Of a stretch of DNA of 34,025 nucleotides, positions 10,503-28,750 are shown piece after piece. The stretch is from positions 1 through 34,025 of the forward strand of contig JBIPMB010000002.1 in assembly GCA_044369355.1 (NCBI GenBank), given 5' to 3'. A program made the position numbers and the translations under genes. The DNA comes from Gammaproteobacteria bacterium. Its GTDB lineage: Bacteria > Pseudomonadota > Gammaproteobacteria > UBA1113. How positions within the stretch are numbered: the stretch's first letter is position 1; every line of letters starts with the position of its first letter. Under the pieces are notes generated by a model. It made no database searches. It was not told the DNA's origin and saw nothing but the letters and a program-made list of their open reading frames with translations.

Positions 10503-11654
10503 TCACTCTTGCAACAATTCAATCGCGGGCAAACTCTTACCTTCTAGGTATTCCAAGAAAGCGCCGCCACCGGTAGAAATATAACTTATTTTATCGTTTA
10601 AATGATAATTTTCAATAGCAGATAGAGTTTCGCCACCACCGGCTAAACTAAAAGCAGAGCTAGCCGCAATGCTTTCTGCGATGCTTTTTGTGCCTGCCGC
10701 AAAAGGAGGGTATTCAAATACCCCTACAGGCCCATTCCAAACGATGGTGCGTGCCTTAGCAATGTAGGATTGATACAAGGCTATGGTCTTAGGGCCTATG
10801 TCTAAGATTTTATCTTCAGGCTTTATTTCATCTAAACTTTTAGTGATCGCTTTGGCTGTAGCCGATAATTCTGTAGCGACAACTACATCGACAGGCAATA
10901 AGATCTTGGGAGATAATAATTTTTTCGCTAGTGGTACTAAGTCAGGTTCATACAAAGAGCACCCCACGGCATGACCTAGAGCTGCTAAGAAAGTATTGGC
11001 TATACCACCGCCTACGATTAAGTGATCGACTTTGGTTAACAACGCTTCTAACACCGTTAATTTAGTTGAAACCTTAGCGCCACCTACAATGGCTAAAAAA
11101 GGTCTTTCTAGGGTGAGTAGGGCACGATCCAAGGCTTGAACTTCGGCACACAACAAAGGGCCAGCACAGGCTTCTTTTGCCTTAGTTAATGCGCCATAAG
11201 TAGAAGCTTGCGCGCGATGAGCGCACGCAAATGCATCCATTACATATACATCGCCTAGATCAGCCAATTGTTGGCTTAAAACCTCGTCGTTGGCTGTTTC
11301 GCCTAAACTAAAGCGTATGTTTTCGCACAGTGCAACTTGACCAGGACTGATTGTAAAACCATGATGCCAATCTTTGATTAAAGTGACATGGCGTTTTAAA
11401 TAATGACTAAGGCGCTCAGCTATAGGCGCCAACGTATAGGCTTCATCATAAACGCCTTCTTGAGGACGGCCCAGATGTGAAATTAAAATTACCGCAGCAC
11501 CTTTATCCAGTGCATATTTAATGGTTGGTAAAGCCGCTAAGATGCGTGCATCATTGACTATATGACCATCTTTCATGGGCACATTAAAATCTTCGCGTAT
11601 GACGACGCGTTTATTTTTAATGTCTAATTTTTCTAAGCTCTTCAATTCAGTCAT
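10503..11654 (-). CDS. pgk: Phosphoglycerate kinase
   Basis: Conserved PGK motifs (RVVIREDFNVP, SHLGRP, GGGD-like GGGIANTF). I prefer the ATG at 11654 (MTELKS...) because AAGGAAA lies 5 nt upstream and it clears the gap stop codon. The ORF track extends to 11675. Confidence 0.93.
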   Translation of the reverse strand: MTELKSLEKLDIKNKRVVIREDFNVPMKDGHIVNDARILAALPTIKYALDKGAAVILISHLGRPQEGVYDEAYTLAPIAERLSHYLKRHVTLIKDWHHGFTISPGQVALCENIRFSLGETANDEVLSQQLADLGDVYVMDAFACAHRAQASTYGALTKAKEACAGPLLCAEVQALDRALLTLERPFLAIVGGAKVSTKLTVLEALLTKVDHLIVGGGIANTFLAALGHAVGCSLYEPDLVPLAKKLLSPKILLPVDVVVATELSATAKAITKSLDEIKPEDKILDIGPKTIALYQSYIAKARTIVWNGPVGVFEYPPFAAGTKSIAESIAASSAFSLAGGGETLSAIENYHLNDKISYISTGGGAFLEYLEGKSLPAIELLQE

Positions 11655-11667
11655 GATTATTTCCTTG

Positions 11668-12675
11668 TTAAGCATTCATCATGGCAACGGAAGTATCCAA
11701 CATGCGGCAACAAAAACCCCATTCATTGTCATACCAAGCCAATACTTTAGCTTGTTGGCCTATAACACGCGTTTGTGTGGCATCAAAAATAGACGAGGCT
11801 GAAGAATGGTTAAAATCGATAGAAACTAAAGGTTCATCGTTGTACCACAAAATACCTTTGAGTGGTCCTTTAACAGAAGCTTCTTTCATCACCTGATTGA
11901 TTTCTTCTACGGTCGTGTTACGCTTGGCATTGAAAGTCAGATCGACTAAAGACACGTTGATAATAGGTACGCGTATGGCCAAGCCATCTAAACAACCTTT
12001 TAATTCTGGTAATACCAAACCAATAGCGGCGGCAGCACCCGTTTTAGTGGGGATTAGCGATGCGGCTGCGGCGCGAGCGCGATGTAAATCTTTATGGCCT
12101 GCATCCAACAAAGATTGGTCATTGGTCATAGCGTGAATGGTGGTCATCAAACCTTGCTCTATGCCTATGCTATCGTGCAAAACTTTGACCACGGGCGCTA
12201 AGCAATTGGTAGTGCAAGAAGCGTTAGAAACGATGGTATCTGTTTTCTTTAAGACTTGATGGTTAACACCATACACAATGGTCGCATCGGCATTTTTGGC
12301 TGGTGCTGAAATTAAAACTTTACGTGCACCCGCTGTTAGATGTTGTGCTGCCATATCGCGGTCAGTAAAGTGGCCGGTACATTCGTAAACGACGTCGATA
12401 TTCAATTCTTTCCATGGTAATTCGCTGGCATTTTTATTCGCTAGGCAAATAATTTTGTGGCCATTCACTACCAGTTGTTCCCCTTCGATGCGCACCTCTG
12501 CGGCAAAACGACCGTGGGTGGAATCGTAACGCAGCAAATGCGCGTTAGTTTCTATGGGGCTGGTGTCGTTGATAGCGACCACGACGATGTCATTTTCTTT
12601 CTTCATTTCATAAATAGCACGCAAACAATTGCGACCGATGCGACCAAAGCCATTAATAGCGATACGTAGTGTCAT
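11668..12675 (-). CDS. gap: Glyceraldehyde-3-phosphate dehydrogenase
   Basis: [12 protein letters not shown]-binding motif, active site [20 protein letters not shown]; GGAGGA Shine-Dalgarno sequence. Its ATG overlaps the tkt stop (TAATG). Confidence 0.96.
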
Positions 12676-14681
12676 TATAATTCCTCCGACAATAAAAGAT
12701 TAATTTGAGCGATAATATTATCCGTGGTAAATCCAAAGTATTTAAAGGCGTCTGCTGCGGGTGCGGATACACCGAATTCGTCTAATCCTAAGACCCGCCC
12801 TTTTAATCCTACATAACGATACCAAAATGCACTGGCGCCCGCTTCTATGGCCAGGCGACGCAATACCTTGCGTGGCAATACACTTTCTTTGTATTCAGCG
12901 CTTTGTGCTTCGAAGTAATCGGCTGAAGGCATGGAAACAACGCGCACGCTGACGCCTTGTTGCTTTAATGTTTTAGCGGCGTTGACGGCTAAAATAACTT
13001 CTGAACCAGTGGCGATTAAAATCACCGAAGGAAAAGCACTGCTGTCGAAAACAACATAAGCCCCGCGTTCTACCTTGGCTAATGTTTCGGGGCTACGTTC
13101 TAGAGAGGGCAGTGCTTGTCTGGATAACAACAAACTGGTAGGCCCATCTTTGCGTTGCAAAGCCATTTTCCATGCTACTGCCGTTTCGACTTCATCTGCA
13201 GGACGCCAGGTGGACATATGCGGCGTAATGCGCAACATGGTTGCGTGTTCAACGGGTTGATGCGTAGGGCCATCTTCGCCTAAGCCTAAGGAATCGTGCG
13301 TATAAACGTAAATGACTTGCTGACGCATCAGGGCAGATAAACGCACTGCATTACGTGCATAATCTAAAAACGTTAAAAAAGTGCCTACATAGGGAATAAA
13401 ACCACCGTGCAAGGCAAGGCCATTGGCAATGGCGCTCATGGCAAATTCGCGTACGCCAAAATGGATATAATTTCCAGCAGGTTTTTCGGCCGTTAAAATA
13501 GTGCTGCCTTGCCACCACGTTAAATTCGATTCGGTTAAATCAGCTGAACCGCCTATTAAACTAGGCCACAATGGGCCATAGGCATTGAGCGCATTTAAAG
13601 ATGCTTTACGCGTAGCAACTTTATTAGCGTTTTCTTGGCAAGCGTGTATATAGGCATCGCTTTGTTCTGACCAATGGGCATTCGGCGTTTTATGATAGCG
13701 TTGAGTCAATTCTTTGGCTTCAGTTGTAAATTCTTTTTCATACAAAGACCAGAGGTCTTGCCATTCTTTTTGCAAGCGATCACCTTGAGGGCGCGCATCC
13801 CAGGCTTGATACAGTTCTTCAGGGATTACAAAAGGGGCATAAGACCACCGCAGCTTTTCACGGGCCAAGGCAATTTCTTCGGCGCCTAAAGGCGCGCCGT
13901 GTGCTTTGGCGGTGTTGGCCAAACGCGGGGCACCAAAACCTATCGTAGTTCTACAACAGATTAAAGTAGGTTTATCTTTTTCGGCTTGCGCTTCGAGTAT
14001 GGCGCGGTGTATAGCCGCGGGATTGTGACCGTCTACGTCGGGGATCACATGCCAATGATAAGCCTCGAAACGACGCGGTGTGTCATCACGAAACCAATCG
14101 TGTACCGGGCCATCAATAGAAATACTGTTGTCATCCCAAAAAGCAATCAACTTGCCTAAACCCAAGGCTCCCGCCAAGGAAGAGGCTTCGTGCGAAATGC
14201 CTTCCATCAAACAGCCATCGCCTAGAAATACATAAGTATGATGATCGATGAGATTAAACCCAGGGCGATTATAGATACTGGCTAAATTCTTTTCAGCTAA
14301 GGCCATACCGACGGCATTGGCCAAACCTTGACCTAAAGGGCCCGTAGTGGTTTCCACACCGGGTGTTAAGCCATGTTCAGGATGTCCAGGGGTTTTGGAA
14401 TGCAATTGACGGAAGGCTTTTAGATCATCAATAGTGAGGTCATAACCTGTTAAATGTAATAAAGCATATTGCAGCATGGAGCCATGGCCGTTGGACAGCA
14501 CAAAACGGTCACGATTTAACCAATTTGGGTCGCTAGGGTTGTGTTTTAGGAAGTCTTTCCATAATACAGTGGCGATATCGGCCATGCCCATAGGCATACC
14601 GGGGTGTCCAGATTGGGCTTTTTCCACGGCATCCATACTGAGGGCGCGAATGGCATTGGCCATTTTATCATACGATATCAT
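12675..14681 (-). CDS. tkt: Transketolase
   Basis: [21 protein letters not shown], ThDP motif [29 protein letters not shown]. The ORF track start at 14711 is a TTG. The ATG at 14681 ([12 protein letters not shown]) matches typical Tkt N-termini. Confidence 0.95.
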
Positions 14682-14813
14682 GGTAGGGTTGCTCCGGTTA
14701 CTTGCATGCAATCATTGTCGCTTATTTGGGGTTTAGATTCAAGGTTGGTTAAGAAATAGATGATACTGCCAGTCTAATCGAATTTTCCATGAACCTTGTG
14801 GAGAATGTAACGA

Positions 14814-14874
14814 AACTTATCGGGAACATATTCCTGTTTAGTCTAACTCAAAAGGAATATGTTCCCGATAAGTT
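14814..14874. promoter_or_regulatory. Perfect 21-bp inverted repeat with a 19-nt loop in the tkt upstream region (operator or bidirectional terminator candidate)
   Basis: aacttatcgggaacatattcc (14814-14834) is the exact reverse complement of ggaatatgttcccgataagtt (14854-14874). Confidence 0.5.
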
Positions 14875-14959
14875 AAGTTTATTAGGATAATGATGCGGAG
14901 CTGTCATACCGTGGTATGGCTGATGAAAGAAGCCGTCAGTTTTGCATTTCGTCCTAAAT

Positions 14960-15025
14960 TTGTCTATAATTGGGGGGCAATTTTAGACAAACTTGTCCAA
15001 AATTGGGGGGCAATTTTAGACATTT
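14960..15025 (+). repeat. Two tandem 33-bp units, each an internal palindrome TTGTCyAwAATTG-GGGGG-CAATTTTAGACA, ending 15 nt before the ATPase GTG start
   Basis: aattggggggcaattttagaca occurs at 14968-14989 and again at 15001-15022. A related third copy lies at 25101-25132 on the opposite strand. Confidence 0.85.
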
Positions 15026-15040
15026 TAAGGCGGATTTATC

Positions 15041-16381
15041 GTGAAGCGATTGATATTTAAGACATTATTAGCCTGGGCTAGGGCGGATAAACATGACCCT
15101 TTGTTGCTCAGGGGCGCCAGACAAGTGGGTAAAACCTATATTGTGGAACAATTTGCACGTCAATATTTCCCCCATTTTGTGAATATTAACTTTGAATTGC
15201 AGCCGGAATTTAAGGCTTGTTTTAATCGTTTAGATCCACACGCTATTATCACCAGCATCGCAGCCTTAAAGCGACAGGCCATCGTGCCAAATGAAACCTT
15301 ATTGTTCCTAGATGAGATCCAACAATGCCCACAAGCGATCGTAGCCTTGCGTTATTTTAAGGAAAATATGCCGCAGTTACATGTGATTGGCGCGGGATCT
15401 TTATTAGAATTTACCTTAAACGATGAAAACCTACAAATGCCCGTAGGCCGTATACAATCACTCTATGTTAAACCTTTGTCATTTAGAGAATTCCTAATGG
15501 CCAATGGTTATGATCAAATCATCGATGTGTTAATGCAAGCAACGTTGCAAACGGGAGTTCCCGATGCCATTCATCAAGAGCTAGAGCGCTGTTTAAGAGA
15601 ATATTTTGTTTTAGGAGGAATGCCGGAAGTCGTGGCAGATTACCTGCAAAAGAAAGACTTAATCCAAAGCCAGATGAAACAGACTTCATTACTGAATATC
15701 TATCGCAGTGACTTTGGAAAATATGCTAAACAGACAAAACATAAATACATGCAGGTTCTATTTGACAAAGTGCCTGGACTCATTGGAACGCAAATTCAAT
15801 TCCAAAAAATAGATGCAGATGTGCATTCGCGTGAGCTCAAAGAGGCGCTAGGCTATTTGTGCAATGCGGGCATTATACATTGTGTTTATCACAGCAGTGC
15901 GTCTGGTTTGCCGTTAAAAAGTTTAATCAATGAGAAGAAATTTAAATTGATCTTTCTAGACATAGGTTTGATTAACGCTAGTGGATATTTAGATCCTTAT
16001 TTGATGCTCAATGAAAATTTAATGATGGCGAATCGCGGCGCATTGGCAGAACAATTTGTAGGTCAAGAATTACTAGCTTGTGCTGCCGATTATCTACCTG
16101 GAGAGTTATTTTATTGGCAGCGTGAAAAAACAGGCAGTATGGCGGAAGTAGATTATGTTATTAATGTGGATTCACAGATTGTTCCTATAGAAGTGAAATC
16201 TGGAAAAACGGGAACTTTGAGATCTTTACAGGTGTTTTTAGATGAAAAGAAACTGCCTTTTGGAGTGCGGCTCTCTTTAAAACCATTGGAATTTCATAAC
16301 CGAATATTATCTGTGCCATTGTATATGATCGAAGAATTGCCTAGGTTGGTAAGAGAATTGCGGCAATCTATTCATCAATAG
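15041..16381 (+). CDS. AAA+ ATPase of the COG1373 / DUF4143 family
   Basis: Walker A LLLRGARQVGKT, Walker B-like LLFLDEIQ, a C-terminal region typical of DUF4143 (EVDYVI...IPIEVKSG, PD-(D/E)xK-like), and a GTG start. Confidence 0.75.
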   Translation: MKRLIFKTLLAWARADKHDPLLLRGARQVGKTYIVEQFARQYFPHFVNINFELQPEFKACFNRLDPHAIITSIAALKRQAIVPNETLLFLDEIQQCPQAIVALRYFKENMPQLHVIGAGSLLEFTLNDENLQMPVGRIQSLYVKPLSFREFLMANGYDQIIDVLMQATLQTGVPDAIHQELERCLREYFVLGGMPEVVADYLQKKDLIQSQMKQTSLLNIYRSDFGKYAKQTKHKYMQVLFDKVPGLIGTQIQFQKIDADVHSRELKEALGYLCNAGIIHCVYHSSASGLPLKSLINEKKFKLIFLDIGLINASGYLDPYLMLNENLMMANRGALAEQFVGQELLACAADYLPGELFYWQREKTGSMAEVDYVINVDSQIVPIEVKSGKTGTLRSLQVFLDEKKLPFGVRLSLKPLEFHNRILSVPLYMIEELPRLVRELRQSIHQ

Positions 16382-16388
16382 CGCTATG

Positions 16389-18281
16389 CTACAATTGGCT
16401 GGCTACAATTTTTTTAAGCCGCTCTATATCGGTTTTTCCAATGACGGTCAAATAAGAAGGAACATCACCTGCTCCAAAAGCCTCACCCGATAGTAAGTAT
16501 AAATGCTGATATCCTCGAGCATGCAATTCTTTGGCTACGTCTAAACCTTTTAAGTCGGAAGTGGCGTAATGATTATCCAGAAAAATTTTAGTGTCTTTTG
16601 GATATTTATCTACATTATTTAGAAAATTCTCCGGATCACGGTATTCCTCCGTGTTGTGAGTAGCAAAAATATGCAACACCAACATATTGACGAAAGTTCT
16701 ATCATCGTCCACAATAACCGCGTCGATTTTTTCTGCCTCAACATTTTCTGTACCTTGCTCATCAGCCGCAGTAATTTTAATCAAAATTTCAGAAGCCAAT
16801 TGCTTAGGTAGAATTTTGGTGTCAATCTTCGCTGCCTGTGCTTGGATCAATGGATCAGCATAATGGCTAGTGACCAACATAGATCGCTTTATTTTACTCT
16901 GGGAAATGATGTGCAAACCATTTAGTTCTTGCGTGAGTAATTCATAGTCTGACAGCAGAAAAACACTCTCTTTTTCAGTTGGCGCCAAAGCCTGGATAAA
17001 TTCCAATGCTTCACGTCCTTGTTGAAAATGTTTAAGTTGTATTGAAGCATCCTGGCTTAAAATGCTGTCAAACCTAACCCGCCATGCACCGTGTATAGAA
17101 GTATCATCATCTAGAATAACAACAATGTCATTCGGTCTCAAGGTTATTTCTTCAGCAATCCAGTGAGGTGCTGTGGCCCTAGGAAAAATCAATGTTATGT
17201 TAGTACCCTTACCCGGTTCAGATGCAATATGCAATTCGCCCTGATTGTGATCCAGCGTTTCCCACACTTGGGTTAAGCCTAAGCCGTGTCCTGACTTCTT
17301 CCCTTCTGTTACAGCGGTTTTATGCATGATTTTGTCAATCAATTCGGCAGACATGCCTTTGCCCGTATCTTGAATGATAATCCTGACCCATTCATTATCG
17401 GTTTCTAGTTGTAAATCTACTTTTCCGACTTGACCATCCAGAGCATCCACCGCATTATTGATTATGTTTGATAACATGCGCTTGAAAGCACTAGACTGTG
17501 TTTTAATAAACGCAAAATGGGTATTGGCTTCAAAGTGATAGTCGAATTTAACCGCCAGTTTATCGTATTGATACTTTTTGGCACTTAAGGTTTCCAATAA
17601 AACAGTAGATACTAAAATAGGGTGACGTTCTTCGTATTCACTTATTTCAGCGTTGTCTTTTTTCTGATATTGATGCAATAAATGATTGGCAATATCGCCT
17701 ATACCTATCGCTGCTTCTCTCAGCGCAATACGGCTGCCTTCTGGAAGTTGTACGCATTCTTTGATGATCACTAGTAAACTACCCAAGGGGGAACGTATAT
17801 CGTGTGCCACTTGATTGGCTAATTGGGTAAATTTTTCTTGTTGTTTTTCAAAAGCTTTGTGCTTTTCGCTTTCAACCCGTAAATTTTCAGCTTCTTTCTT
17901 ATCTGTAATTTCTATTGCAGTGCAGATAGTTCCTACCACATTACCGTTGTTGCCAAATAATGGCGCTCTGACCGTTTCATAGTACCTAAATTTACCAGTT
18001 GCTACATCTACAATTTTTTCTTCGATTTTTATTGGAGTATTATTTTTTAAAACCATGCCAACTATATCAGTTAATTCATCAGCGATTTCTTTAGGATAAT
18101 AATCATGATATGTTTTACCAACTAGCACCTCTTTTATGCTGGTTCCACTGCTGCCTATAGCCTCCAGGCATAAGTCATTACCCCCTAAAATTATGTAATT
18201 TATATCTAACCAATAAATTGGAATAGGTATCAATGGGGCGATACGATCTAACTCTTCAAATATTTTATCTCTTTTAAACAT
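16389..18281 (-). CDS. Cytoplasmic hybrid sensor histidine kinase: PAS, HisKA, HATPase_c and two receiver-like domains
   Basis: PAS-like N-terminus with no TM segment; H-box QVAHDIRSPL (about 17786-17810); N-box NIINNAVDAL; G-boxes DTGKGM and GHGLGL. Two REC-like modules follow (VILDDD...LLSDYEL and VIVDDD...IFLDNHY). AGGAG lies 6 nt upstream of the ATG, and the gene starts 25 nt after the NRPS stop. Confidence 0.85.
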   Translation of the reverse strand: MFKRDKIFEELDRIAPLIPIPIYWLDINYIILGGNDLCLEAIGSSGTSIKEVLVGKTYHDYYPKEIADELTDIVGMVLKNNTPIKIEEKIVDVATGKFRYYETVRAPLFGNNGNVVGTICTAIEITDKKEAENLRVESEKHKAFEKQQEKFTQLANQVAHDIRSPLGSLLVIIKECVQLPEGSRIALREAAIGIGDIANHLLHQYQKKDNAEISEYEERHPILVSTVLLETLSAKKYQYDKLAVKFDYHFEANTHFAFIKTQSSAFKRMLSNIINNAVDALDGQVGKVDLQLETDNEWVRIIIQDTGKGMSAELIDKIMHKTAVTEGKKSGHGLGLTQVWETLDHNQGELHIASEPGKGTNITLIFPRATAPHWIAEEITLRPNDIVVILDDDTSIHGAWRVRFDSILSQDASIQLKHFQQGREALEFIQALAPTEKESVFLLSDYELLTQELNGLHIISQSKIKRSMLVTSHYADPLIQAQAAKIDTKILPKQLASEILIKITAADEQGTENVEAEKIDAVIVDDDRTFVNMLVLHIFATHNTEEYRDPENFLNNVDKYPKDTKIFLDNHYATSDLKGLDVAKELHARGYQHLYLLSGEAFGAGDVPSYLTVIGKTDIERLKKIVASQL

Positions 18282-18306
18282 TAGTTTCTCCTATCCTTAT
18301 ATAATC

Positions 18307-21300
18307 TTATGCATAATCCACTTCAACACTTTCAATTATGTTGGACAACATTTTACTAGTAATATTCGGCCATTGAAAATTTAGCTGATTTAATATGTAA
18401 TTTGTTTTATCTTGAAAAATAACTACCTTAGCTAAATTCTTTATATTGGGTCGTAGCCACCCTTGATGCAGCATAAATAACTCGATTCGATTCGTGTTAT
18501 GGCTATTTTTTAGTTTTATTAAAATATCATCAATAAACTCAGCAAATGATATTTGTTTAATATTATTTCTATACGGATGTAGTAGGGTATATAAATTAGA
18601 CTTCTCGGGATGAAATACATGATATATTTGATTGTATAATCTTTTCTGATTAAATAATGTTATAATTGCGGCCGCGGTATAGTCAACGGGAGAGATCTCT
18701 ATTTCACGTAATTCTTGAGGAATTATGCCTAATTCTAGTATTGCTTTGACACATTGAATGAATGCATTATCTTCTATATTTTCTTGCGCTTTATGCGTTA
18801 CTGAATTAATAGCAATATTACCTATACGGTATATATTAGCTTTAACCCCATGTTCTCTATACTTAAGGACAGCTTCCTCTCCTTCATATTTAGTTTTGGT
18901 ATAAATGTTGTCTAAATTAGCATGAACATTATCTATAATATTTTCAGTGAAAATATTATAATCTTGATTTGAAATGCATGTATTTGCAAATACACCTATG
19001 GTAGAAACATAGTGGAAATCTTTACGGGTTGTTTTAGCCAGTTCAAGCAAATTAATGGTTGATTGTACATTGGCTTGATAAAAATCAATATATTCCCCAT
19101 AATGTTTAACCAAAGCTGCGCAATGAATAATGCTGTCAACATTACCTACTAAATTCTGATATGTCAATTCATCCAGCCCTAAATTAATCTGCGCAATATC
19201 AGATTTTAAAACAGTTAACCTATGTTTGTAATCATTTAAATTTACGCCAAAGTAATATTTAAATTTATTGTTAACTCGTTCATAAGCAGTTATATGTTCG
19301 GAAATTCTTACTAATAAGTATATCGTATGCTTGGTTTCTAGCAATAACTGATGCAAAATATGACAGCCTAAATATCCAGTAGCCCCGGTTAATAATATTT
19401 TACAAGCAGGCCTAGTTTCATTTTCAAATTCAAAAAGTTTAGCTTGTATTTGATATTGAGTTCGTTCATCTTCTATTGTTATATTATTATCTTCGTTGCC
19501 AGAATCCAATTTGGAATAGATTAATTTAATTTCTTCAAGTTTATCCACTAAATTAAAGTTGGCAGCTGAAGAAAGCTCAGCAAGTTTGGCTGGCGTCTTA
19601 AGTTCAAATATATTATTTAGCGTAATATTAAAGTAACGTTGTAATTTGAATAATAGTCTTATAGCCAATATGGAGTTACCACCCCATTTAAAAAAACTGT
19701 CGTTAATACCAATTTTCTTTACCGCCACCCCTAAAACATCCGCATAAATCGTACATATTCTTTGTTCTGATTCATTTCTTGGGCCTATATAATCATCTGT
19801 ATTGGCAATAGATTGCGGTTGAGGAAGTAATTTTATATCTAATTTGCCATTCCTAGTTAATGGGAATTCCTTCAGCCAAACAAAAGCATTTGGAACCATA
19901 TATTCAGGTAATTCGGATGCTAAATATGTTAGGATTAAATTTTCAGCTAATTTTGTGTCAGATATGTAATAAGCAACTAAGCGTTGCGTATTTCTACCTT
20001 TGATATCAGTTTGATCTTGGCATAATACCAAGGCTTGTTTTATTTCTGGATAGTTCGATAACGTAGTTTCTATTTCGTTTAACTCTATTCTTAAACCACG
20101 TATTTTTATTTGGCTGTCATTACGCCCTATGTATTCAACATTTCCATCAGGTAGATAACGAACTAAATCGCCCGTTTTATATAATCTACTATTTTTACCA
20201 CATTGCTTTTCTTTTTCAGTTTGAAATGGATTAGGTATAAACTTTTCAGCCGTTAATTGTGGTAGATTTAAATAACCTCTGGCTAAACCCACGCCGCCAA
20301 TATACAACTCACCTATCGCACCAATTGGAACTGGTTTTAAATGACTATCTAGAGCATATAGTGTAGATTGCTCCAATGGATAACCTATTGTAGTAAGTTT
20401 ATCGTGAGTTATTCGCTGATTTTTAAAGTCAGTAATGTCGTAACTTACTTCTCCGGCCTCAGTTGGCCCATAATAATTGATATATTTTATATCGATATTC
20501 TTGTCAACTAGTGACTTTCTAAACTTTTCCCCACTTAGATTTATTGTTTTTAATCTATTAAATATATCTTCTTTTTTAGGGTAACTCTGTATTACCTCTA
20601 ATTGAGAGGGAACAAAATGACAAAAGTTTATATTATTTCTCGTAATTAAGCTATTGATTTCATCTACATCAAATACGGATTTAGTAATATAAAGTGATGC
20701 TCCAGATAGTAAAGTCATAAATATATCGGAAAAAGATACGTCAAAAGTGTAATTGGTTTTAAATAGATATTTATCTCTGCTATTTATACCGTTTTTTTCG
20801 TTCATAGACATTATTCTAATAGTGGCGCCACAATGTTCTATCATAACTCCTTTGGGATTGCCGGTGGTGCCACTAGTATACATGACATAAACCAAATTCT
20901 TACTGGTTATATTTAATTTAGGATTATCTTTTATCTGTTGTTTTAGTTTATATTGTGTCTCATAGCTGTCTATAGACAAAATGTCTGTATAATGACTGGA
21001 TGTAGACTTGGTAAGTATATTATTGTAATGGCAATCATTTGTGATAACTACTTTTGCTTTTATATCTTCTAGTATATAGCGGATCCTTTTTTCAGGATAT
21101 GCCGGATCGATAGGTACGTAAGCAGCGCCAGCCTTCAGTATTGCTAATATGGCTATTAACATATATTGGCTTCGATTTAAGTGCAATGCAATTAAATCAT
21201 CGCCTTTAAGGTTGTAGTTAATTCTTAAATAATGAGCCAGTTGATTTGATTGCTCGTTTAATTCAGCATATGTTAATTTAATGCCTTCGTAAACGACAGC

Positions 21301-22698
21301 GATATTATTTGGTGTTTTGTCTACTTGGGCTTCAAATAATTCTTGGATAGTTTTGCTGGCTTTATAATACTCGTTAGTTTTATTCCAGCCATATACAATC
21401 TGGTTGTATTCCAACTTACTTAACACGGAATATTCATCTATCAGCTTATTGGTTATATTAGCACTTAAATCGTCCAAAATAGTTAAAAATATTTGTTCAT
21501 AATGGCGTATAAATTTTGTTAAAACATCTTCATCTATTTTTAATGTATTATATCTCACCCTAAAATTCGGTATATTCTCCAACATTTCTAGTTCGAAAAT
21601 AATTTTTACTGGCAAATCTATGTTAAATTCAGCATTTATTTTAAGTGTTTTTACATCAAGAAAATCAAAAGCCATATTTTTTAGATTTGTTTGAGCAAAC
21701 ATGATAGCCAATAAATCATTATTTACATTATGCATAATCTTATTTATCGGGTAATGGCTTGCATTTTGCCCCATAGACTTGATTGATTGGATAAAATCTT
21801 TATCTTGTTTAAACAAATCAATTATTCTTGCTGTAGCACTAAATTCATAAACATTAATGTTTGTATTAATCTGTGCGCCAGAGATTAAAGGTATGCCGCC
21901 TTTAATCGCTATAGGATAACTAAGCCCAATTTTATTGTTCCCAGTATACTTGTGCAGTAATATGGCCAATATACATTTGCTATAACTATATACTGTAGCG
22001 CCAAATTTTTTAGTTGTGTTAAGGAGTTTTTCAGTTATTTCTTGTGTAAGCTTAAATCTATATTCTTTAATATTACTTATATTGCTTTCAGATTTAACCC
22101 ATCTAAGATCAACCGATTCAACATCATTTAAGTATTTCCTCCAAAAAGGTTGATAAATACCATCATATTTTTCTAATTGTTTCTCAAGCAAGTCAGTGGT
22201 ATCTATTAGCATATTTTCTTGTTGCGACATAGTATAAGCTAATTTATATGAGGGTGAATTATAATAATTAGAGATTTCAGAGATTAGGGTATTGAATGAA
22301 CCCCCATCAATCAATAAATGATGCAGTACTAAGATAAATCTAAAGTTTCCACTAGCTTCAGTAAATAAAGCAAACCGGTATAAAGCTTTGGTTTCAATTT
22401 CAAATGGCACAGATACATAATTTAAAATTTGCTCTCGGGTATGAGGATATTTAAAATATTCAAGTTTAGGTATTTCTGTATTTTTTATCCAATACAACTT
22501 ATCTTCTATCTGTATGACATGGCTGTTTATAATTAAATAATCTGATGCAAATCGGTAAAGTGCACACTCTAATCGATTTACATCTAAATTAGCAGATAAA
22601 ACTTGATCAAATACTATATTGTATCGACTATTAGAAGGATCAAGTTTCCATTCATTATAAAATATTGTATGGTACGGCGATAGCTTTATCGTGTACAT
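18307..22698 (-). CDS. Single-module nonribosomal peptide synthetase, domain order C-A-T(PCP)-R (terminal thioester reductase)
   Basis: C domain HHLLIDGGS (about 22303-22326). A-domain cores are LTYAELN, LKAGAAYVPID, YTSGTTGNPKG (about 20849-20878), FDVS, NYYGPTE, GELYIGGVGLARGY, YKTGDL and NGKLD. PCP motif FFKWGGNSI (about 19672-19686). R domain LLTGATGYLGCHIL (about 19369-19390) and YTKTK. Confidence 0.92.
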   Translation of the reverse strand: MYTIKLSPYHTIFYNEWKLDPSNSRYNIVFDQVLSANLDVNRLECALYRFASDYLIINSHVIQIEDKLYWIKNTEIPKLEYFKYPHTREQILNYVSVPFEIETKALYRFALFTEASGNFRFILVLHHLLIDGGSFNTLISEISNYYNSPSYKLAYTMSQQENMLIDTTDLLEKQLEKYDGIYQPFWRKYLNDVESVDLRWVKSESNISNIKEYRFKLTQEITEKLLNTTKKFGATVYSYSKCILAILLHKYTGNNKIGLSYPIAIKGGIPLISGAQINTNINVYEFSATARIIDLFKQDKDFIQSIKSMGQNASHYPINKIMHNVNNDLLAIMFAQTNLKNMAFDFLDVKTLKINAEFNIDLPVKIIFELEMLENIPNFRVRYNTLKIDEDVLTKFIRHYEQIFLTILDDLSANITNKLIDEYSVLSKLEYNQIVYGWNKTNEYYKASKTIQELFEAQVDKTPNNIAVVYEGIKLTYAELNEQSNQLAHYLRINYNLKGDDLIALHLNRSQYMLIAILAILKAGAAYVPIDPAYPEKRIRYILEDIKAKVVITNDCHYNNILTKSTSSHYTDILSIDSYETQYKLKQQIKDNPKLNITSKNLVYVMYTSGTTGNPKGVMIEHCGATIRIMSMNEKNGINSRDKYLFKTNYTFDVSFSDIFMTLLSGASLYITKSVFDVDEINSLITRNNINFCHFVPSQLEVIQSYPKKEDIFNRLKTINLSGEKFRKSLVDKNIDIKYINYYGPTEAGEVSYDITDFKNQRITHDKLTTIGYPLEQSTLYALDSHLKPVPIGAIGELYIGGVGLARGYLNLPQLTAEKFIPNPFQTEKEKQCGKNSRLYKTGDLVRYLPDGNVEYIGRNDSQIKIRGLRIELNEIETTLSNYPEIKQALVLCQDQTDIKGRNTQRLVAYYISDTKLAENLILTYLASELPEYMVPNAFVWLKEFPLTRNGKLDIKLLPQPQSIANTDDYIGPRNESEQRICTIYADVLGVAVKKIGINDSFFKWGGNSILAIRLLFKLQRYFNITLNNIFELKTPAKLAELSSAANFNLVDKLEEIKLIYSKLDSGNEDNNITIEDERTQYQIQAKLFEFENETRPACKILLTGATGYLGCHILHQLLLETKHTIYLLVRISEHITAYERVNNKFKYYFGVNLNDYKHRLTVLKSDIAQINLGLDELTYQNLVGNVDSIIHCAALVKHYGEYIDFYQANVQSTINLLELAKTTRKDFHYVSTIGVFANTCISNQDYNIFTENIIDNVHANLDNIYTKTKYEGEEAVLKYREHGVKANIYRIGNIAINSVTHKAQENIEDNAFIQCVKAILELGIIPQELREIEISPVDYTAAAIITLFNQKRLYNQIYHVFHPEKSNLYTLLHPYRNNIKQISFAEFIDDILIKLKNSHNTNRIELFMLHQGWLRPNIKNLAKVVIFQDKTNYILNQLNFQWPNITSKMLSNIIESVEVDYA

Positions 22699-22743
22699 TG
22701 TTAATTACGCACAATATGTTTTTTTAACATTTAAAATATATCC

Positions 22744-23733
22744 TCATTGCTCGGACAATTTAGCAAAGGATTCAGGGAGTAAATCGCCGTGTGCAAAATT
22801 GAGAGATATGTGTTGCTCGATTTGTAATAATTCTGCGGAAGAAAGATTCAAATCAGCAGCATTAACGTTTTCTTCCAAATGCGCGACTTGTTTTGTACCC
22901 GCGATAGCGACTACATTATCAGCTTGATTTAGAACCCAAGCCAATGCAATCTGACCAGGGGTTACGCCTTGATTATGTCCTATATCTCTTAATACAGATA
23001 TCATCTGCAAATTGTGTTTGATATTTTCAGGTTGAAATCGCGGTAAAACTCTGCGTAAATCATCTTTTTCTAAAGTATCTAAGCTCGCTATAGTCCCGGT
23101 AAAAAAACCTTTGCCCATAGGTCCATGCGCCACAAAGCCAATGTTAAGCGATTGACACAGAGGAATGATTTCTTCTTCAGGTTTCCTGTGCCATAGAGAA
23201 TATTCGGATTGAATTGCGGTTAAAGGATGAATACTATGTGCTTTGGCAATGGTCTTTGCAGAAACTTCAGATAAACCTATATGGCGTACTTTACCTTCTG
23301 CGACCAGTTCAGATAAAGCGCCTACGCTTTCTTCGATGGGTGTATTGGGATCCACTCTATGTAAATACAGTAAATCTAGATAATCGACTTCTAGACGTTT
23401 TAAAGTTGCTATACACGCGTCTTTAATATACTTTGGGTTTCCATTCACACCTAAGACTTCGCCAGTTTCAGAACTTCTCACCAGACCACACTTGCTGGCA
23501 ATCACAACTTTATCTCTAAATCCTTTAATGGCGCCTGCCAACAATCGTTCATTATGCCCTAAGCCATAGCAATCTGCAGTATCAAAATGGGTTACTCCCA
23601 ATTCGAAAGCTCGGTGTATCGTTTTAACGGATTCTAGATCGTTGGTTTTACCATAGTATTCAGACATTCCCATACAGCCTAATCCAAGATTAGAAATTTG
23701 TAATTTTTTTATGCCTAAAGTTTTATTTTTCAT
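22744..23733 (-). CDS. Aldo-keto reductase (NADPH-dependent oxidoreductase, Tas/YajO-like)
   Basis: LGLGCMGMS, FDTADCYG, the catalytic Asp/Tyr/Lys/His context (D..Y, ASKCG, LYLHRVD) and IAGTKQVAHLEEN. The ATG at 23733 (MKNKTLGIKKLQIS) gives the canonical AKR N-terminus, whereas the ORF track extends 47 aa further to 23874. The gene ends 45 nt upstream of the NRPS start. Confidence 0.85.
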   Translation of the reverse strand: MKNKTLGIKKLQISNLGLGCMGMSEYYGKTNDLESVKTIHRAFELGVTHFDTADCYGLGHNERLLAGAIKGFRDKVVIASKCGLVRSSETGEVLGVNGNPKYIKDACIATLKRLEVDYLDLLYLHRVDPNTPIEESVGALSELVAEGKVRHIGLSEVSAKTIAKAHSIHPLTAIQSEYSLWHRKPEEEIIPLCQSLNIGFVAHGPMGKGFFTGTIASLDTLEKDDLRRVLPRFQPENIKHNLQMISVLRDIGHNQGVTPGQIALAWVLNQADNVVAIAGTKQVAHLEENVNAADLNLSSAELLQIEQHISLNFAHGDLLPESFAKLSEQ

Positions 23734-24121
23734 AATAATTTCCACAAAGCGTAAAATATCTTTGTTTAACCATTGATTATCTATACCATTATACTTCAAG
23801 ATGTGAATTAAACTAACCGTGATGTTATATTCCACAGGATAGTTCGGTCTGCTCACGAGCCAATTTACATGCATTTTTAAGTATAATCGTATTAATACTA
23901 ACGGTACCTTGCTTTATATATGCCGAGTCTACACTAATTTTAATTTTTTATCTAGCAAATCAGCCATCATAATCACACTGTGTTAATGCCGTATTAATGC
24001 TTTTTATATTTTGACAAGATTTCAGCTTGCACAAGCATACTATTCATCTATATACTCGGCGCTGCGTATGAGCTAACGCGGGCCGGAGACATAGAAGCTC
24101 AATTCAGAGGAGTATACACAC

Positions 24122-24931
24122 ATGGTCGAAACAATACCTACCCCAAAGACAGATGTTACATCAGATGAAAAGCAGTTGGAGTATGAACAAAAATTAGCAA
24201 CGGCTTCAGCCATAGTAAGGAGTATTGCGCATGAACTGAACACACCACTCTCCGCTATAGACATGGGAGTCAAGGGTGCAAAAAACTATTTTTTAGTGCT
24301 GTTAGAAAATTATCAACTGGCGAAAAAGAATAATTTACCTGGACTAAAACTCATTCCGCCTAAGCATTTCGAAGTATTATCTACTTTATTTGACGATCTA
24401 GAGAGAGAGGTCGATTTTAGTAAGCTTTTTATAAAAATCCTCATTCAAAATATGAAGCGGGATCTAACCCAAGAAGACAGCAAGAAAGTGCAAAATATAT
24501 ACACTTGCATAGAAGAAGCATTGCTACAGTACCCTTTTGCGTATAGAGAAGAAAGTCTAGTCCATTGGGATTCCAAGAAGAGCTTTTCCTTTATTGGTTC
24601 TGATTTTCTCATTATATATGTTTTATTTAATCTTTTAAAAAATTCTCTTTATCAAATAGCAAAAGCGGGCAAAGGTCGGATTCAGTTGTGGCAAACTATT
24701 GAGCATAATGCCAATGTTTTACATTTCAAGGATACCGCTACCGGGATTCCAGAAGATATAAAAAGCACCTTATTTCAACCCTTTGCAAGTAACCGCCAGC
24801 ATGGTATCGGCTTAGGGTTGGCTTTCTGCAATAAGGTAATGCAAAAACTAGGCGGGAGTATTGAGTGTTGCTCTGTTGAGGGAGAATATACTGAATTTTT
24901 GCTCTATTTCCCGCCAATTAAGAAACCATAA
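24122..24931 (+). CDS. Small soluble histidine kinase (HisKA plus HATPase_c only; no TM or recognisable sensor domain)
   Basis: H-box SIAHELNTPLSAI, N-box LFNLLKNSLYQI, G1 DTATGIP, G2 HGIGLGLAFC; GAGGAG Shine-Dalgarno sequence. It is divergent from the AKR-NRPS-kinase operon. Confidence 0.8.
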   Translation: MVETIPTPKTDVTSDEKQLEYEQKLATASAIVRSIAHELNTPLSAIDMGVKGAKNYFLVLLENYQLAKKNNLPGLKLIPPKHFEVLSTLFDDLEREVDFSKLFIKILIQNMKRDLTQEDSKKVQNIYTCIEEALLQYPFAYREESLVHWDSKKSFSFIGSDFLIIYVLFNLLKNSLYQIAKAGKGRIQLWQTIEHNANVLHFKDTATGIPEDIKSTLFQPFASNRQHGIGLGLAFCNKVMQKLGGSIECCSVEGEYTEFLLYFPPIKKP

Positions 24932-24936
24932 GGTTG

Positions 24937-25099
24937 AGGGACTGTTGACAATTGGTTTGTCGGCTGCAAAATGAGTAAAAAAAGTCCAAATATTAGCAAA
25001 TTTTTGTCAAATATTGCCCGATATTCTCCTCAAATTTGCTAATATTTTGCCTGGCTTTCCTCATTTTTCGCTTCGACAAACCAATTGTCAACAGTCCCT
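24937..25099. repeat. 163-bp long imperfect palindrome with perfect 26-bp terminal inverted repeats (MITE-like element or giant terminator hairpin)
   Basis: agggactgttgacaattggtttgtcg (24937-24962) is the exact reverse complement of 25074-25099. Inner blocks aaaatgag and aaatattagcaaattt also pair. It starts 6 nt after the kinase stop codon. Confidence 0.8.
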
Positions 25100-25100
25100 A

Positions 25101-25132
25101 GTTTTGTCTAAAATTACTCCCCAATTCTGAAC
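25101..25132 (-). repeat. Third, inverted copy of the AATTGGGG-N-AATTTTAGACAAA motif seen at 14968-15022
   Basis: The reverse complement reads gttcagaattggggagtaattttagacaaaac. It matches aattggggggcaattttagacaaa at all but 2 positions. Confidence 0.75.
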
Positions 25133-25187
25133 ATCTTAAGAAACCACTTTTTTATTTAATAACCTCAGCAAATAGTCATTCTGCTCA

Positions 25188-25196
25188 TGCTATAAT
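25188..25196 (+). promoter_or_regulatory. Candidate extended -10 promoter (TGcTATAAT) for the Sel1-SH3-kinase gene
   Basis: tgctataat at 25188-25196 lies about 62 nt upstream of the ATG. AAGGAG lies 7 nt upstream of the ATG. There is no good -35 element. Confidence 0.35.
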
Positions 25197-25258
25197 TTCA
25201 AACGAAGATACGGTCTATCATCAATCACGAATAACCCAAACCGCCAAGGAGTGCCAGG

Positions 25259-28200
25259 ATGTTTGTTATTAGGTATGTGCAATTTTTATTTACAGCTATT
25301 ATTTTGGGATTTCAATGGATGGCGCTACAGTGGATGAGGGTGGCGCAAGGTTCTGTCTCGCAAAATGAGAGTGCACCTAGAAGTGTTACTACTACCGATG
25401 AGCCCGATCAGGGGCCCTTACTGATTCCTTCACTGATGAAAGTATCTCCACTTTTGCCGCTGTCGCTTTTTGCGGGCAGTGTAGTTTGGAGCCGATCCAT
25501 AGCCGTTAGAGGAATCAGCGCACATAAACAAAATTTACCGTTGGCACAATTCTATCAAAATAGTGTAGGCTTTATGCGTAGAGAGGCGGCATTTAACTTA
25601 GCTTTGGGCCTATGGATAGGAATAGTTGAATTTTATCGTGCAGAAAAAGAGGAGCCGCCCGAATTTCTAATTTTCTTTTTAACGACACTATTCTCAGAAT
25701 TATCGCTGAACTTGTCTGCAGGTTTTTATGACCTTTGCACCCAGAGAAACGGAGGAGCCTATTTTTTTTCAAAGTTAAAAAATATTCTTTTACACACTAC
25801 GTTTCCCAGTGCCGCCACAGCACTGCTGACGTATCGTTATTCATTCGACATCTTATATAGGCGAGATGCTATAGCCAATAAATGGCTGTGGATGGCTTTG
25901 GCAGGGGCAGGACCACAAGTCCCTAGGCAAATAGCACTATTCTGCTTTTCAAAAGCGGCACAGGTACTGTCTTTTTATTTACGGCCCAATAATGTTATTG
26001 CAATAACGGATGAAGAATCATTGCGGGCTTACTGTTCACAAGCGGATGACGAAGCATCTTTCACCGAGGGTGAAATATCGGAAACGGAGACAGAGATAGA
26101 GGAATCCTTGTCCTTATTGTCGGGTCCGGTTGAATCTAGGCCCAGTCACGTTGTATTCGGAAGTTCTATCCCTTGGTTATTATTGGCGCCTATAGCGACA
26201 ATGGTATCCTGGTTTGCGGCAGCGATATTGTGTGCATGGGAAGATAAATCGCTGCAAGATGATAAATACAATGACCTTTCCTTGCCCTTACTACAAGTGG
26301 CAACGGGTATGACTGTAGGTGTAGTCGCAGTAAATGTGCTATGGGGAACGGTGGTGGGTGTAAAAACGCTGTGTCATAAACGGCATCAACCGTTGCATGA
26401 GAAGGAAGAAGAAAAAGATGAAGATGATACTCAGGATGAACGGGTGGATGATTTTCAGGAAAGCTCAAGGCGCAAGAAGGTCAAACCTAATTTCGTGCCC
26501 AATCTTAAGTTAGCGGGAATAAAGGCGCTACCTTCGTCTGCTACGCTTACCGCTAGAGAAAAACGAGTTGGGGGAATAGAGATACAGCGTGAGTTGTATC
26601 GTAAACTCGGGACTCAGTTAATGACCTCGGAGCATGACTTCAATTACAATGAAGCTAGAGATTCTCTAGATAAAGCCAGTAAATTGGGTGATCAAATAGC
26701 CTGGTGCTATTTGGGATTTTTATATGAATATGGCTTAGGCGTTACGATATCCTTGCCTGCCGCTGCATATTGCTATGCTAAAGGCAATGAAGACAATGCA
26801 TTGATTAAACTGATACAAGGCGTATGTTACTTGCGGCGGTTAGAAGTTGGTGCATTAAGTTTTGTAGAAGACGCTATAGAGATGTTGATAAAGGCGATTG
26901 AACTGAGCAAAGCGTGTAAACTTAAAGATTGGCAAAGTACGATTGATTTTTTAAACCGTATTGCAGATACTCCAGAGGACGTGAGCGCTAATCTTATCTT
27001 AGCTTTGGTCTATGAATTAGGTTTGCTGGATGTAAATAGCAATACAGGCCGTGCCGCGCAGTACTATGAAAAAGTTGCTGAACGCGGTGAATCCTGGACT
27101 CAATATAACCTAGGGATGATCTGTCAAAATAAAATATGGCCCCGTAAAAATGCTAAAAAGGCCTACGACTGGCTTCGTTTGTCTGTAGAGCCACGCCATA
27201 AAGTGGTAGAGCCATTGTATTGGTATAATTTAGGTCTTGCCTATCGAGATGGCGTGGGGGTGACACAAAATTATAGCGAAGCAATAAAATGCTTTGAATC
27301 TGCACGTGAGTTAGGCAGTGGGGTTGCTTATAATGCTTTAGCAACGATGTATGAAAATGGATGGGGCTGTGAGCGAGATGTGGATAAAGCGGCTCAATTT
27401 AAAGTTGAAAGTGAGCGTAAACGCGACAGTGGGCCGGTCAATCTTCTTCTGATAGAAGAAGAGGCGTTACCTGACCTAACACTAAAATTAAAACGCAAAA
27501 GCAGAGAAATGAAAGTAGGCTTCGTTGAGCTCGTTGATGAATTGATCCCGGTTAGGGTTTTGTGTGATTTTCATGATGATAGGCGAATCGATCACTTACC
27601 TATCCAGAAAGGCGAAATTTTGCGGGTACGTATCGAAAAAAAGAACTGGCTATATGCCATAAATGCACAAGGCTTAGAAGGATTGGTGCCTAGAAATGCG
27701 ATACGTCTTAAAAAAGAAAAGGGTGCTCGAGCAGGATCTAGTCAAAATTTATCCAATGGCTATAAGGTTATAGATGAAAGAGAGCTTAGCGATCAAAAAG
27801 ATTTAGACCAAAGTTTTTATACTAAAGTTTCTTTAGCTTTTTGGAAAGACCAGCAAATTGTGGTGAAAGAATTATTAGCGCATGCTCCGCCAGAAGAAGC
27901 AAATAATTTTGCAATGGAAGGGGAATTGATGACGCAATTAGACCATCCTAATATTGTAAAGCTGTTGGGTTTTGTCAATTCTCCACTCAAATTCATTATA
28001 GAATACATGCCCTTTGGCTCAGTATCGAAATGTTTGCAGAGAAAAGATCCCCGGGTTTCTCCTGAAAAACGACTTGATATTGCATTGGATATAGCCAAAG
28101 CACTTAACTACTTGCACGATAAAACAATATTGCATCGCGATGTAAAAAGCCAGAATGTTTTGCTGGATGCCGTCTGCGCAAAATTAGCAGACTTTGGCAT

Positions 28201-28741
28201 AGCAGTGCAATGCGAAGAGGGGACTATAATGTATGTGGGTAGCCGCAGAGGTACCTTAGATTGGCTTAGTCCTGAATTACTGGAAAGAGATGTTTGTGTG
28301 TATACGCGAGAAAGTGATGTTTATGCTTACGGTGTTTTTCTATGGGAGTTATTTTCGCATCAGGAAGCGCAGTTGGTTAAAGACTATCTTAATCAATCAC
28401 AGCCTTGTTTTCCAAAGATGCCACATGAGATCGTAATATTAATCCAGGGGTGTTGTGCGAAAGATCCTCAGCGTCGGCCTACCATGCCTTATATTGTAGA
28501 CGAGTTACTAAGACGGAAGGAAAACGCTTCCAAGGAAAAAGGAAAAGAAGAAGAGAGCACATCCGTATCTTTGGAAGAAGAACTTATTTTAGAAGAGCCG
28601 TCTGGCTTAAATGCTGCTAGTCGCTTGGGTGGCGAAGGATCTTCCTGGGGTGGTGGTGGCAAAAACCATTTTTTCCAACAAGCCAGTTCATCTGGTAGCA
28701 CCCAAACGCAGGTCCAACAATATAAACACTATTCTGTTTAA
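25259..28741 (+). CDS. Multidomain eukaryote-like protein: N-terminal polytopic hydrophobic region, acidic linker, Sel1/TPR-like repeats, SH3-like domain, TKL-type protein kinase domain and Glu-rich C-terminal tail
   Basis: Sel1 repeats span about 26689-27400 (AWCYLGFLYEYGLGV, WYNLGLAYRDGVGVTQNYSEAIKCF, AYNALATMYENGWGCERDVDKAAQF). The SH3-like segment spans about 27541-27710 (VRVLCDFHDD..LPIQKGEILRV..NWLYAI..GLEGLVPRNAIRL). Kinase motifs are VVK, E, HRDVKSQNVLL (28133-28156), DFG (28189-28197), SPE, DVYAYGVFLWELFS and DPQRRP. Confidence 0.85.
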   Translation: MFVIRYVQFLFTAIILGFQWMALQWMRVAQGSVSQNESAPRSVTTTDEPDQGPLLIPSLMKVSPLLPLSLFAGSVVWSRSIAVRGISAHKQNLPLAQFYQNSVGFMRREAAFNLALGLWIGIVEFYRAEKEEPPEFLIFFLTTLFSELSLNLSAGFYDLCTQRNGGAYFFSKLKNILLHTTFPSAATALLTYRYSFDILYRRDAIANKWLWMALAGAGPQVPRQIALFCFSKAAQVLSFYLRPNNVIAITDEESLRAYCSQADDEASFTEGEISETETEIEESLSLLSGPVESRPSHVVFGSSIPWLLLAPIATMVSWFAAAILCAWEDKSLQDDKYNDLSLPLLQVATGMTVGVVAVNVLWGTVVGVKTLCHKRHQPLHEKEEEKDEDDTQDERVDDFQESSRRKKVKPNFVPNLKLAGIKALPSSATLTAREKRVGGIEIQRELYRKLGTQLMTSEHDFNYNEARDSLDKASKLGDQIAWCYLGFLYEYGLGVTISLPAAAYCYAKGNEDNALIKLIQGVCYLRRLEVGALSFVEDAIEMLIKAIELSKACKLKDWQSTIDFLNRIADTPEDVSANLILALVYELGLLDVNSNTGRAAQYYEKVAERGESWTQYNLGMICQNKIWPRKNAKKAYDWLRLSVEPRHKVVEPLYWYNLGLAYRDGVGVTQNYSEAIKCFESARELGSGVAYNALATMYENGWGCERDVDKAAQFKVESERKRDSGPVNLLLIEEEALPDLTLKLKRKSREMKVGFVELVDELIPVRVLCDFHDDRRIDHLPIQKGEILRVRIEKKNWLYAINAQGLEGLVPRNAIRLKKEKGARAGSSQNLSNGYKVIDERELSDQKDLDQSFYTKVSLAFWKDQQIVVKELLAHAPPEEANNFAMEGELMTQLDHPNIVKLLGFVNSPLKFIIEYMPFGSVSKCLQRKDPRVSPEKRLDIALDIAKALNYLHDKTILHRDVKSQNVLLDAVCAKLADFGIAVQCEEGTIMYVGSRRGTLDWLSPELLERDVCVYTRESDVYAYGVFLWELFSHQEAQLVKDYLNQSQPCFPKMPHEIVILIQGCCAKDPQRRPTMPYIVDELLRRKENASKEKGKEEESTSVSLEEELILEEPSGLNAASRLGGEGSSWGGGGKNHFFQQASSSGSTQTQVQQYKHYSV

Positions 28742-28750
28742 ACAGAGTAT

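Follow-up and report, generated by a model that had tools for sequence, protein, structure and literature searches.

The 34,025-nt stretch of DNA analyzed here, called the window below, comprises positions 1 to 34,025 (forward strand) of contig JBIPMB010000002.1 from a gammaproteobacterium of the UBA1113 lineage (GenBank assembly GCA_044369355.1). The assembly is a metagenome-assembled genome (MAG; G000 in our numbering) of 2.69 Mb in 350 contigs and is 97% complete. The window contains three copies of a 31-bp dyad, here termed the box, two of which stand in tandem over the promoter of a gene encoding an AAA_14 plus DUF4143 ATPase of the PADLOC family PDC-S01. These two copies, units 1 and 2, are probably a private operator array of the adjacent ATPase gene, serving for docking of its product and for self-control. 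The original prediction had seen in the three copies a bracket around a 10-kb accessory segment and had offered three readings: scars of a mobilized island, operators for one dimeric regulator of the flanking genes, and relics of a coding repeat.

The box is a 13-5-13 dyad, TTGTCTAAAATTG-GGGGG-CAATTTTAGACAA. Unit 1 (14960-14990, + strand) reads TTGTCTATAATTG-GGGGG-CAATTTTAGACAA, its arms being complementary at 12 of 13 positions, and unit 2 (14993-15023, + strand), 33 bp after unit 1, reads TTGTCCAAAATTG-GGGGG-CAATTTTAGACAT, with 11 of 13 positions complementary. Unit 3 (25104-25134, − strand) reads TTGTCTAAAATTA-CTCCC-CAATTCTGAACAT on the + strand. Only 8 of its 13 arm positions pair. The earlier description of the copies was accurate: the 22-mer AATTGGGGGGCAATTTTAGACA occurs exactly at 14968-14989 and 15001-15022 (+ strand), in tandem with a 33-bp period upstream of the ATPase gene, and with 2 mismatches on the opposite strand at 25105-25126, and unit 3 begins 5 nt past the end (25099) of a 163-bp palindrome.

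The box is rare. In 100 dinucleotide-preserving shuffles searched with up to 3 mismatches, no match to AATTGGGGGGCAATTTTAGACA was obtained (0/100). The whole-genome count proposed with the original prediction gave three copies in total, with no further copy in the 2.69 Mb and a lone 3-mismatch match on contig C289 that lies within an open frame and resembles chance. Exact-core scans of 185,579 species genomes and a metagenome collection returned the congeners G014 and G016 only, plus chance or coding matches, and by these scans no wider family shares the box core. A dispersed repeat of the repetitive extragenic palindromic (REP) or miniature inverted-repeat transposable element (MITE) type was therefore rejected on its copy number, which is three in the genome and zero to two per congener, with chance matches beyond the two congeners in the collection scans.

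The ATPase gene (15041-16381, + strand; Pfam PF13173 and PF13635) has a predicted sigma-70 promoter at 14942-14970 (+ strand), composed of TTGCAT, a 17-nt spacer, and TATAAT, with the −10 hexamer within the left arm of unit 1 (the promoter tool output was TTTGCA-18-TATAAT, 10/12). The 5′ end of the transcript is predicted near 14977. The predicted leader contains unit 2, whose end is separated from the start codon by 17 nt, and an AAGG motif stands 9 nt before that codon. The start codon is GTG at 15041 in the window and ATG at the same place in a strain variant (L062; ENA ERZ25039529 contig_103360), which fixes its position. In this variant, whose ATPase has 97% identity, tkt, the two units, and the gene are all retained, and the flanking spacer differs. 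Its tkt and ATPase genes are each split among several called genes, probably through assembly frameshift errors rather than as real pseudogenes. A homologue of 65% identity in an unrelated neighborhood (L063) also has TTGCAT-17-TATAAT, as read from the sequence, with TATAAT in the first box.

We collected homologues of the ATPase from the same bacterial family and from public assemblies and read their upstream regions. A homologue of 65% identity located between ATP sulfurylase and malic enzyme genes (P0002) is preceded by TTGTCTATAATTA-CCCCC-ATATTTGAAACA and TGTTTAAAATA-CCCC-TATAATTTTAGACAA, whose C-runs are 33 bp apart; one of 60% identity (P0004) is preceded by GGTTCTAATTG-CCCCCC-AATTAGAACC followed by its G-form, and one of 61% identity (P0005) by TGGCTAAAATAA-CCCCC-TAATATTAGCCA. 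In another genus (G011:C99), three units of the type TTGTCTAAAATTA-N5-TAATTTTAGACAA, with run starts at 16, 49, and 82, stand upstream of a decayed ATPase homologue, and the central CTCCC unit closely resembles unit 3 of the window. This array (L014; ~8225-8350, − strand) forms, at exact 33-bp phasing, one long palindrome; the frame of the homologue is apparently broken, and no open reading frame (ORF) of at least 80 aa starts there. Homologues in G008, G009, G011, G012, G013, G014, and G017 have upstream repeats of their own, and in the more remote homologues other words, frequently direct repeats lacking dyad symmetry, recur at the same spacing.

This spacing was evaluated over the region from −170 to +6 at 16 independent loci, where the chance of a best lag of 33, 34, 65, or 66 is 4/56 per locus. 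The best direct-repeat lag was 33 or 34 in 11 of the 16 upstream regions and 65 or 66 in another 2, i.e., 13 of 16 together. Strict C- or G-run dyads, of which there are 30 in 2.69 Mb (an expectation of 0.002 per region), were present in 4 of the 16 regions. The arms change symmetrically across lineages: among 15 units from nine loci in seven or eight genomes, arm pair 1 is G-C in six units and A-T in five, and arm pair 10 is T-A in six, G-C in five, and C-G in two. Tandem arrays (the window, L063) and inverted arrays (L067, L068, L052, L051, L053) both precede intact genes, and the strand of a unit is defined solely by its G or C spacer. By these comparisons, the boxes go with the gene and not with the locus.

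The 446-aa gene product matches the PDC-S01 models over its full length (PADLOC PDLC04788, E value of 1e-146). Its AlphaFold model, built on 74 homologues (pLDDT 90.1, pTM 0.89), comprises, as read from the secondary structure, an AAA+ core, a helical lid, a helix-helix-beta-hairpin module at about residues 254 to 305, and an alpha/beta domain. The last of these contains the invariant residues D371, E384, and K386, an intact D..ExK motif that is the signature of PD-(D/E)XK nucleases; the Walker A residue is K31. No PDB relative was found by sequence, and a fold search alone gave relatives: the top matches were the Walker-type ATPase of Pyrococcus abyssi (2qen), followed by DNA-bound Orc1/Cdc6 proteins and ORC subunits (2v1u, 2qby). 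According to the model, the protein would combine an AAA+ ATPase resembling Orc1/Cdc6 and a winged helix with an additional PD-(D/E)XK nuclease domain. PDC-S01 has been described as the fourth most common predicted defense gene in prokaryotes, a single-gene candidate whose function is untested (PMC12988326), and the ATPase in published work is fused to a PD-(D/E)XK domain (PMC12988326, PMC3424549). The gene at 15041-16381 is a candidate phage defense gene. The papers found on DUF4143, PDC-S01, and COG1373 do not mention upstream box arrays.

An operator array on this promoter could work as follows. The winged helices of the ATPase would bind its own boxes, with one symmetric pair on each 13-5-13 dyad. 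Spacing of 33 bp corresponds to about three helical turns, which would place neighboring dimers on one face of the DNA, where they could join through their ATPase domains. Since unit 1 covers the −10 hexamer and unit 2 the early transcribed leader, occupancy of the array should repress the gene's own promoter. The analysis itself shows the sequence features, how rare they are, their link with the gene family, the phasing, the symmetric arm changes, and the predicted fold; from these we infer binding, cooperativity, and repression. For binding and control of the promoter, the indirect evidence is the predicted winged helix in an Orc1/Cdc6-like fold and the location of the −10 hexamer in unit 1. 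Among the three readings offered originally, the operator idea comes nearest to the evidence, with the amendment that the boxes belong to the ATPase gene and its homologues and that there is no sign of coordination of the flanking genes.

Several known systems resemble this arrangement in part. Autoregulatory phased operators and plasmid iterons, such as Lrp-type operators and the iterons of Rep proteins, have repeats of a private recognition word at intervals of whole helical turns, placed at the promoter of the gene of the presumed binder. The boxes are arranged likewise, next to or over the gene's own promoter, but the presumed binder is an ATPase-nuclease instead of a classical repressor or initiator, and the box word varies by lineage while the spacing stays at 33 bp. 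The archaeal Orc1/Cdc6 initiators (PDB 2v1u, 2qby) with their origin recognition boxes share with the present system an AAA+ protein with a winged helix, among the best fold matches to the ATPase model, and repeated dyad-like boxes that the ATPase would bind. The ATPase differs from them in its extra PD-(D/E)XK nuclease domain, and the sequence identity is 11 to 14%; the boxes differ from origin recognition boxes in standing on the gene's own promoter in strict 33-bp phasing, with nothing pointing to a replication origin. On the protein side, a further likeness is to PADLOC PDC-S01 itself (AAA_14 plus DUF4143, COG1373), which the gene matches throughout.

A number of observations weigh against this assignment. 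Well-kept box pairs are present in G016 and G014 with no cognate ATPase gene adjacent or elsewhere in the genome; the best ATPase homologues there are 32% and 55% identical, respectively, and have other boxes upstream, or none were read. The G016 pair is a perfect palindrome with 23-nt arms. Such preservation is odd for useless relics, and these pairs could have an independent function. An ATPase of another subfamily stands behind an A-type box pair in G020, and in the window's own genome a paralogue of the same subfamily on contig C280 shows a single weak box only. The symmetric arm changes fit a hairpin equally well as a protein dimer. Lastly, G000, G016, and G020 are incomplete MAGs (97%, 83%, and 74%, respectively), in which the absence of a gene is uncertain.

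Comparison with relatives bears directly on the idea of an island bounded by the boxes. The gene content given in the original prediction is correct: between the copies lie the DUF4143 ATPase, a PAS histidine kinase, a nonribosomal peptide synthetase (NRPS) of C-A-T-R architecture, an aldo-keto reductase, and a short histidine kinase, and outside them lie tkt on one side and a Sel1-SH3 kinase and ponA on the other. In the congener G016, blastn aligns window positions 10502-14751 (tkt-gap-pgk) at 92% identity, 16388-24938 (histidine kinase, NRPS, aldo-keto reductase, and second histidine kinase) at 85% DNA identity, and the kinase region from 25104 onward at 70%. G016 lacks the ATPase gene, 99 unrelated bp replacing window positions 15025-16387, and carries two full units as an inverted pair between the kinase stop codon and tkt, both on the tkt side; it also has a degenerate unit 3, syntenic with that of the window. 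No ATPase remnant was found in the 99-bp spacer, so that gain and loss of the gene are indistinguishable. In another congener, G017 (L045, G017:C42), ponA (92% amino acid identity) is followed by tkt (95%) across a gap of ~215 bp that contains a GC-rich hairpin and no boxes or accessory genes. Since ponA adjoins tkt there, the boundaries of presence and absence are 14712 and 28750, not the boxes; the true accessory stretch relative to G017 (14712-28750) is ~14 kb long, includes the Sel1-SH3 kinase gene, and has no boxes at its ends. Conversely, G014 has an inverted box pair with a Na/H exchanger gene on one side and the 3′ terminus of the kinase homologue on the other, and G020 has a diverged pair at an IleRS locus, and both lack the block.

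The copies are thus almost certainly neither terminal inverted repeats or att scars of a 10-kb island nor a generic dispersed REP or MITE. Copies in inverted orientation do flank 10 kb of accessory genes on both sides, and the G+C content of the NRPS part of the segment is low (~0.30), but G016 has the block in synteny and both full units to one side of it, the empty site of G017 has other boundaries, boxes occur without the block in G014 and G020, and the three genome copies, with scans yielding two congeners and chance matches, leave no room for a generic repeat. The boxes do not coincide with the boundaries of presence and absence in G016 and G017. Pfam scanning of the eight large ORFs at 12.7 to 31.2 kb found no integrase, transposase, or recombinase gene, and the window contains no tRNA gene. 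On the synteny of these relatives, the island-boundary reading is refuted.

Another way to connect boxes with gene turnover is to regard them as recombination or landing sites, at which the nuclease of the ATPase, or a host recombinase, would act on the dyads so that ATPase cassettes and cargo are gained and lost, the orphan pairs being empty sites. Inverted 13-nt arms around a short asymmetric spacer recall simple tyrosine-recombinase sites. All insertions and deletions between the window and G016 at this locus begin at a box (the ATPase, 15025-16387; 14752-14958; the 163-bp palindrome, 24939-25103), the intact boxes of G016 occupy the very place that boxes plus gene have in G000, and the gap upstream of tkt holds different DUF4143 genes or boxes alone in G000, L062, G014, and G016 and nothing in G017. 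The D..ExK motif is, moreover, intact. However, no recombinase gene was detected by Pfam at 14.7 to 28.7 kb, there are no target duplications or clean hybrid sites, and the 99-bp spacer of G016 contains no remnant of the gene. Conserved boxes in a fast-diverging spacer anchor alignments and would mimic such boundaries in any case, and 33-bp phasing with promoter overlap is what an operator predicts. Short dyad sites with a central spacer at module junctions are also known from the Xer-type dif-like inverted sites on Acinetobacter plasmids and from integron attC cassettes. The boxes resemble these as short dyads at junctions of gene modules that differ between relatives, and differ from them in lacking a linked Xer-like or integrase gene and in not bracketing the modules consistently. 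By eye, the box arms have no evident match to the dif consensus (11-6-11, with XerC and XerD arms). We consider landing sites an unlikely explanation. A combination of the two ideas, in which PDC-S01 genes are portable one-gene units whose phased boxes are both operator and landing pad, the ATPase-nuclease acts on its cognate boxes, and the pairs in G016, G014, and G020 and unit 3 are empty or abandoned sites, is quite unlikely.

If tkt, the ATPase, the kinase, and the biosynthetic block were instead under the joint control of another dimeric transcription factor with the boxes as its operators, the dyad symmetry of the boxes and their presence in promoter-bearing gaps before tkt (G016), the Na/H exchanger gene (G014), the ATPase gene (G000), and the kinase gene (G000 and G016) would be accounted for. 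This is very unlikely, as Pfam revealed no gene for a DNA-binding regulator in the region, every congener, most of them without boxes, has a conserved promoter region belonging to tkt itself, and related boxes recur before ATPase homologues whose neighbors are otherwise unrelated. The boxes might also act as RNA or DNA hairpins, that is, terminators, insulators, or transcript stability elements between operons. Their folds are strong, with energies of −21 to −24 kcal/mol for the tandem units (z score of −4.9 to −8.7) and of −33 to −44 kcal/mol for the inverted pairs found in G016, G014, and G020 (z score of −7.9 to −10.6), and there is one weak terminator-like call on the minus strand of unit 2, with three G-C pairs and a tail that is the arm of the next unit. 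Yet the stems are AT rich and not consistently followed by a T-tract, which the pairs of the relatives lack, the phased direct repeats of many homologues (L054, L059, and L061) cannot form hairpins, unit 3 folds no better than shuffled sequence, and no Rfam family matches the window; a hairpin role is highly improbable. The third original reading, a coding-repeat relic within a 56-codon ORF, did not survive: the relatives have their second unit in inverted orientation or their units on the opposite strand, so the 56-aa peptide cannot be conserved, and the peptide has no NCBIfam match and no Pfam hit in the public gene call.

A private operator array would explain units 1 and 2, and the remaining copy has a different status. 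Unit 3 differs from its G016 counterpart by substitutions and a 2-nt spacer deletion, a divergence like that of the neutral DNA around it, and a TATAAT region of the kinase promoter ~60 nt downstream is conserved with G016. Unit 3 is most likely an orphan box that has decayed neutrally since before the split of G000 and G016. Its inverted orientation carries no meaning, as the units are near-symmetric and tandem and inverted arrays both precede intact homologues. A split three-unit array like that of G011 was considered as the source of unit 3, but it matches imperfectly in the succession of G-forms and C-forms. The pairs of G014 and G016 are likewise most likely orphan boxes, and the pair of G020 probably is as well.

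Two palindromes of the window lie close to boxes. The 163-bp palindrome (24937-25099) is a low-copy, MITE-like element with perfect 26-nt termini. Its own genome has further copies of ~90% identity on contigs C14 (285-411) and C343 (613-721) and incomplete ones on C317, C172, and C244; the syntenic site of G016 lacks the element and holds 62 unrelated bp. The element is separate from the box system and was inserted beside unit 3 after the split from G016. The box-related words that the original prediction noted in its termini amount to a weak relation, the copies on C14 and C343 having different termini devoid of those words. The 71-bp palindrome (14809-14879) has 34-nt arms that are 88% complementary and shows, by eye, a likeness of ~80% to the boxes that immediately precede another DUF4143 ATPase gene beside tkt in G014. 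Between G014 contigs C83 and C172 there is an overlap of 36 identical residues. The palindrome is absent from L062 and G016 and has no other copy in its own genome. It is probably a second orphan box set, the operator of a lost ATPase gene.

Taken with the gene content of the relatives, these orphans suggest that the gap between tkt and ponA is a turnover hot spot, at which DUF4143 genes and other cargo appear to come and go and leave orphan boxes behind. Upstream of tkt, other congeners have a Na/H exchanger gene (G015) or other genes. A second hot spot for DUF4143 genes looks to be the IleRS-orf193 locus. At this locus in G020 (L013, G020:C34), the A-type box pair at 7693-7757 is followed by a B-type DUF4143 ATPase on the + strand, and on contig C2 of G000 the same locus has an ATPase 42% identical to that of G020, in opposite orientation and with a different palindrome. 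The 2.7-Mb genome has ~10 paralogues of the DUF4143 ATPase (contigs C2, C247, C79, C126, C91, C75, and C280), most of them with a palindrome or direct repeats of their own upstream. Examples are the palindrome TGTCAAATTCCAAGTTGAACTTGGAATTTGACA (15-nt arms) on C2, three copies of CCATTTTAGACG at a 22-nt period on C247, and palindromes of GGAGTATACTCC on C79.

Two genes of the accessory stretch deserve comment. The NRPS gene (18307-22698; C-A-T-R) has a G+C content of ~0.30, compared with 0.40 to 0.47 around it, and its sole close orthologue in the family is in G016 (82% amino acid identity); homologues in G008 and G014 share the architecture at 38 to 41% identity and are found at other loci. 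The gene for the Sel1-SH3-protein kinase (25259-28741) has 48% protein identity to its syntenic G016 counterpart, compared with 85 to 90% for the neighboring kinases and reductase. By these identities, the Sel1-SH3 kinase is evolving very fast, as would be expected of a host-directed effector.

For the annotation of the window, these results remove a false island boundary, and they add orphan boxes and, beside tkt, a hot spot for cargo, the recognition of which should be useful for annotating MAGs of this kind. Should the phased sites be operator and landing pad at once, they would make the tkt-ponA gap a hot spot at which cargo collects. PDC-S01 had no known DNA target, and a 31-bp dyad with a 33-bp repeat period on the promoter of the ATPase gene offers a concrete substrate for binding, footprinting, and nuclease assays, for which the lineage-specific arm changes would provide a natural specificity series.

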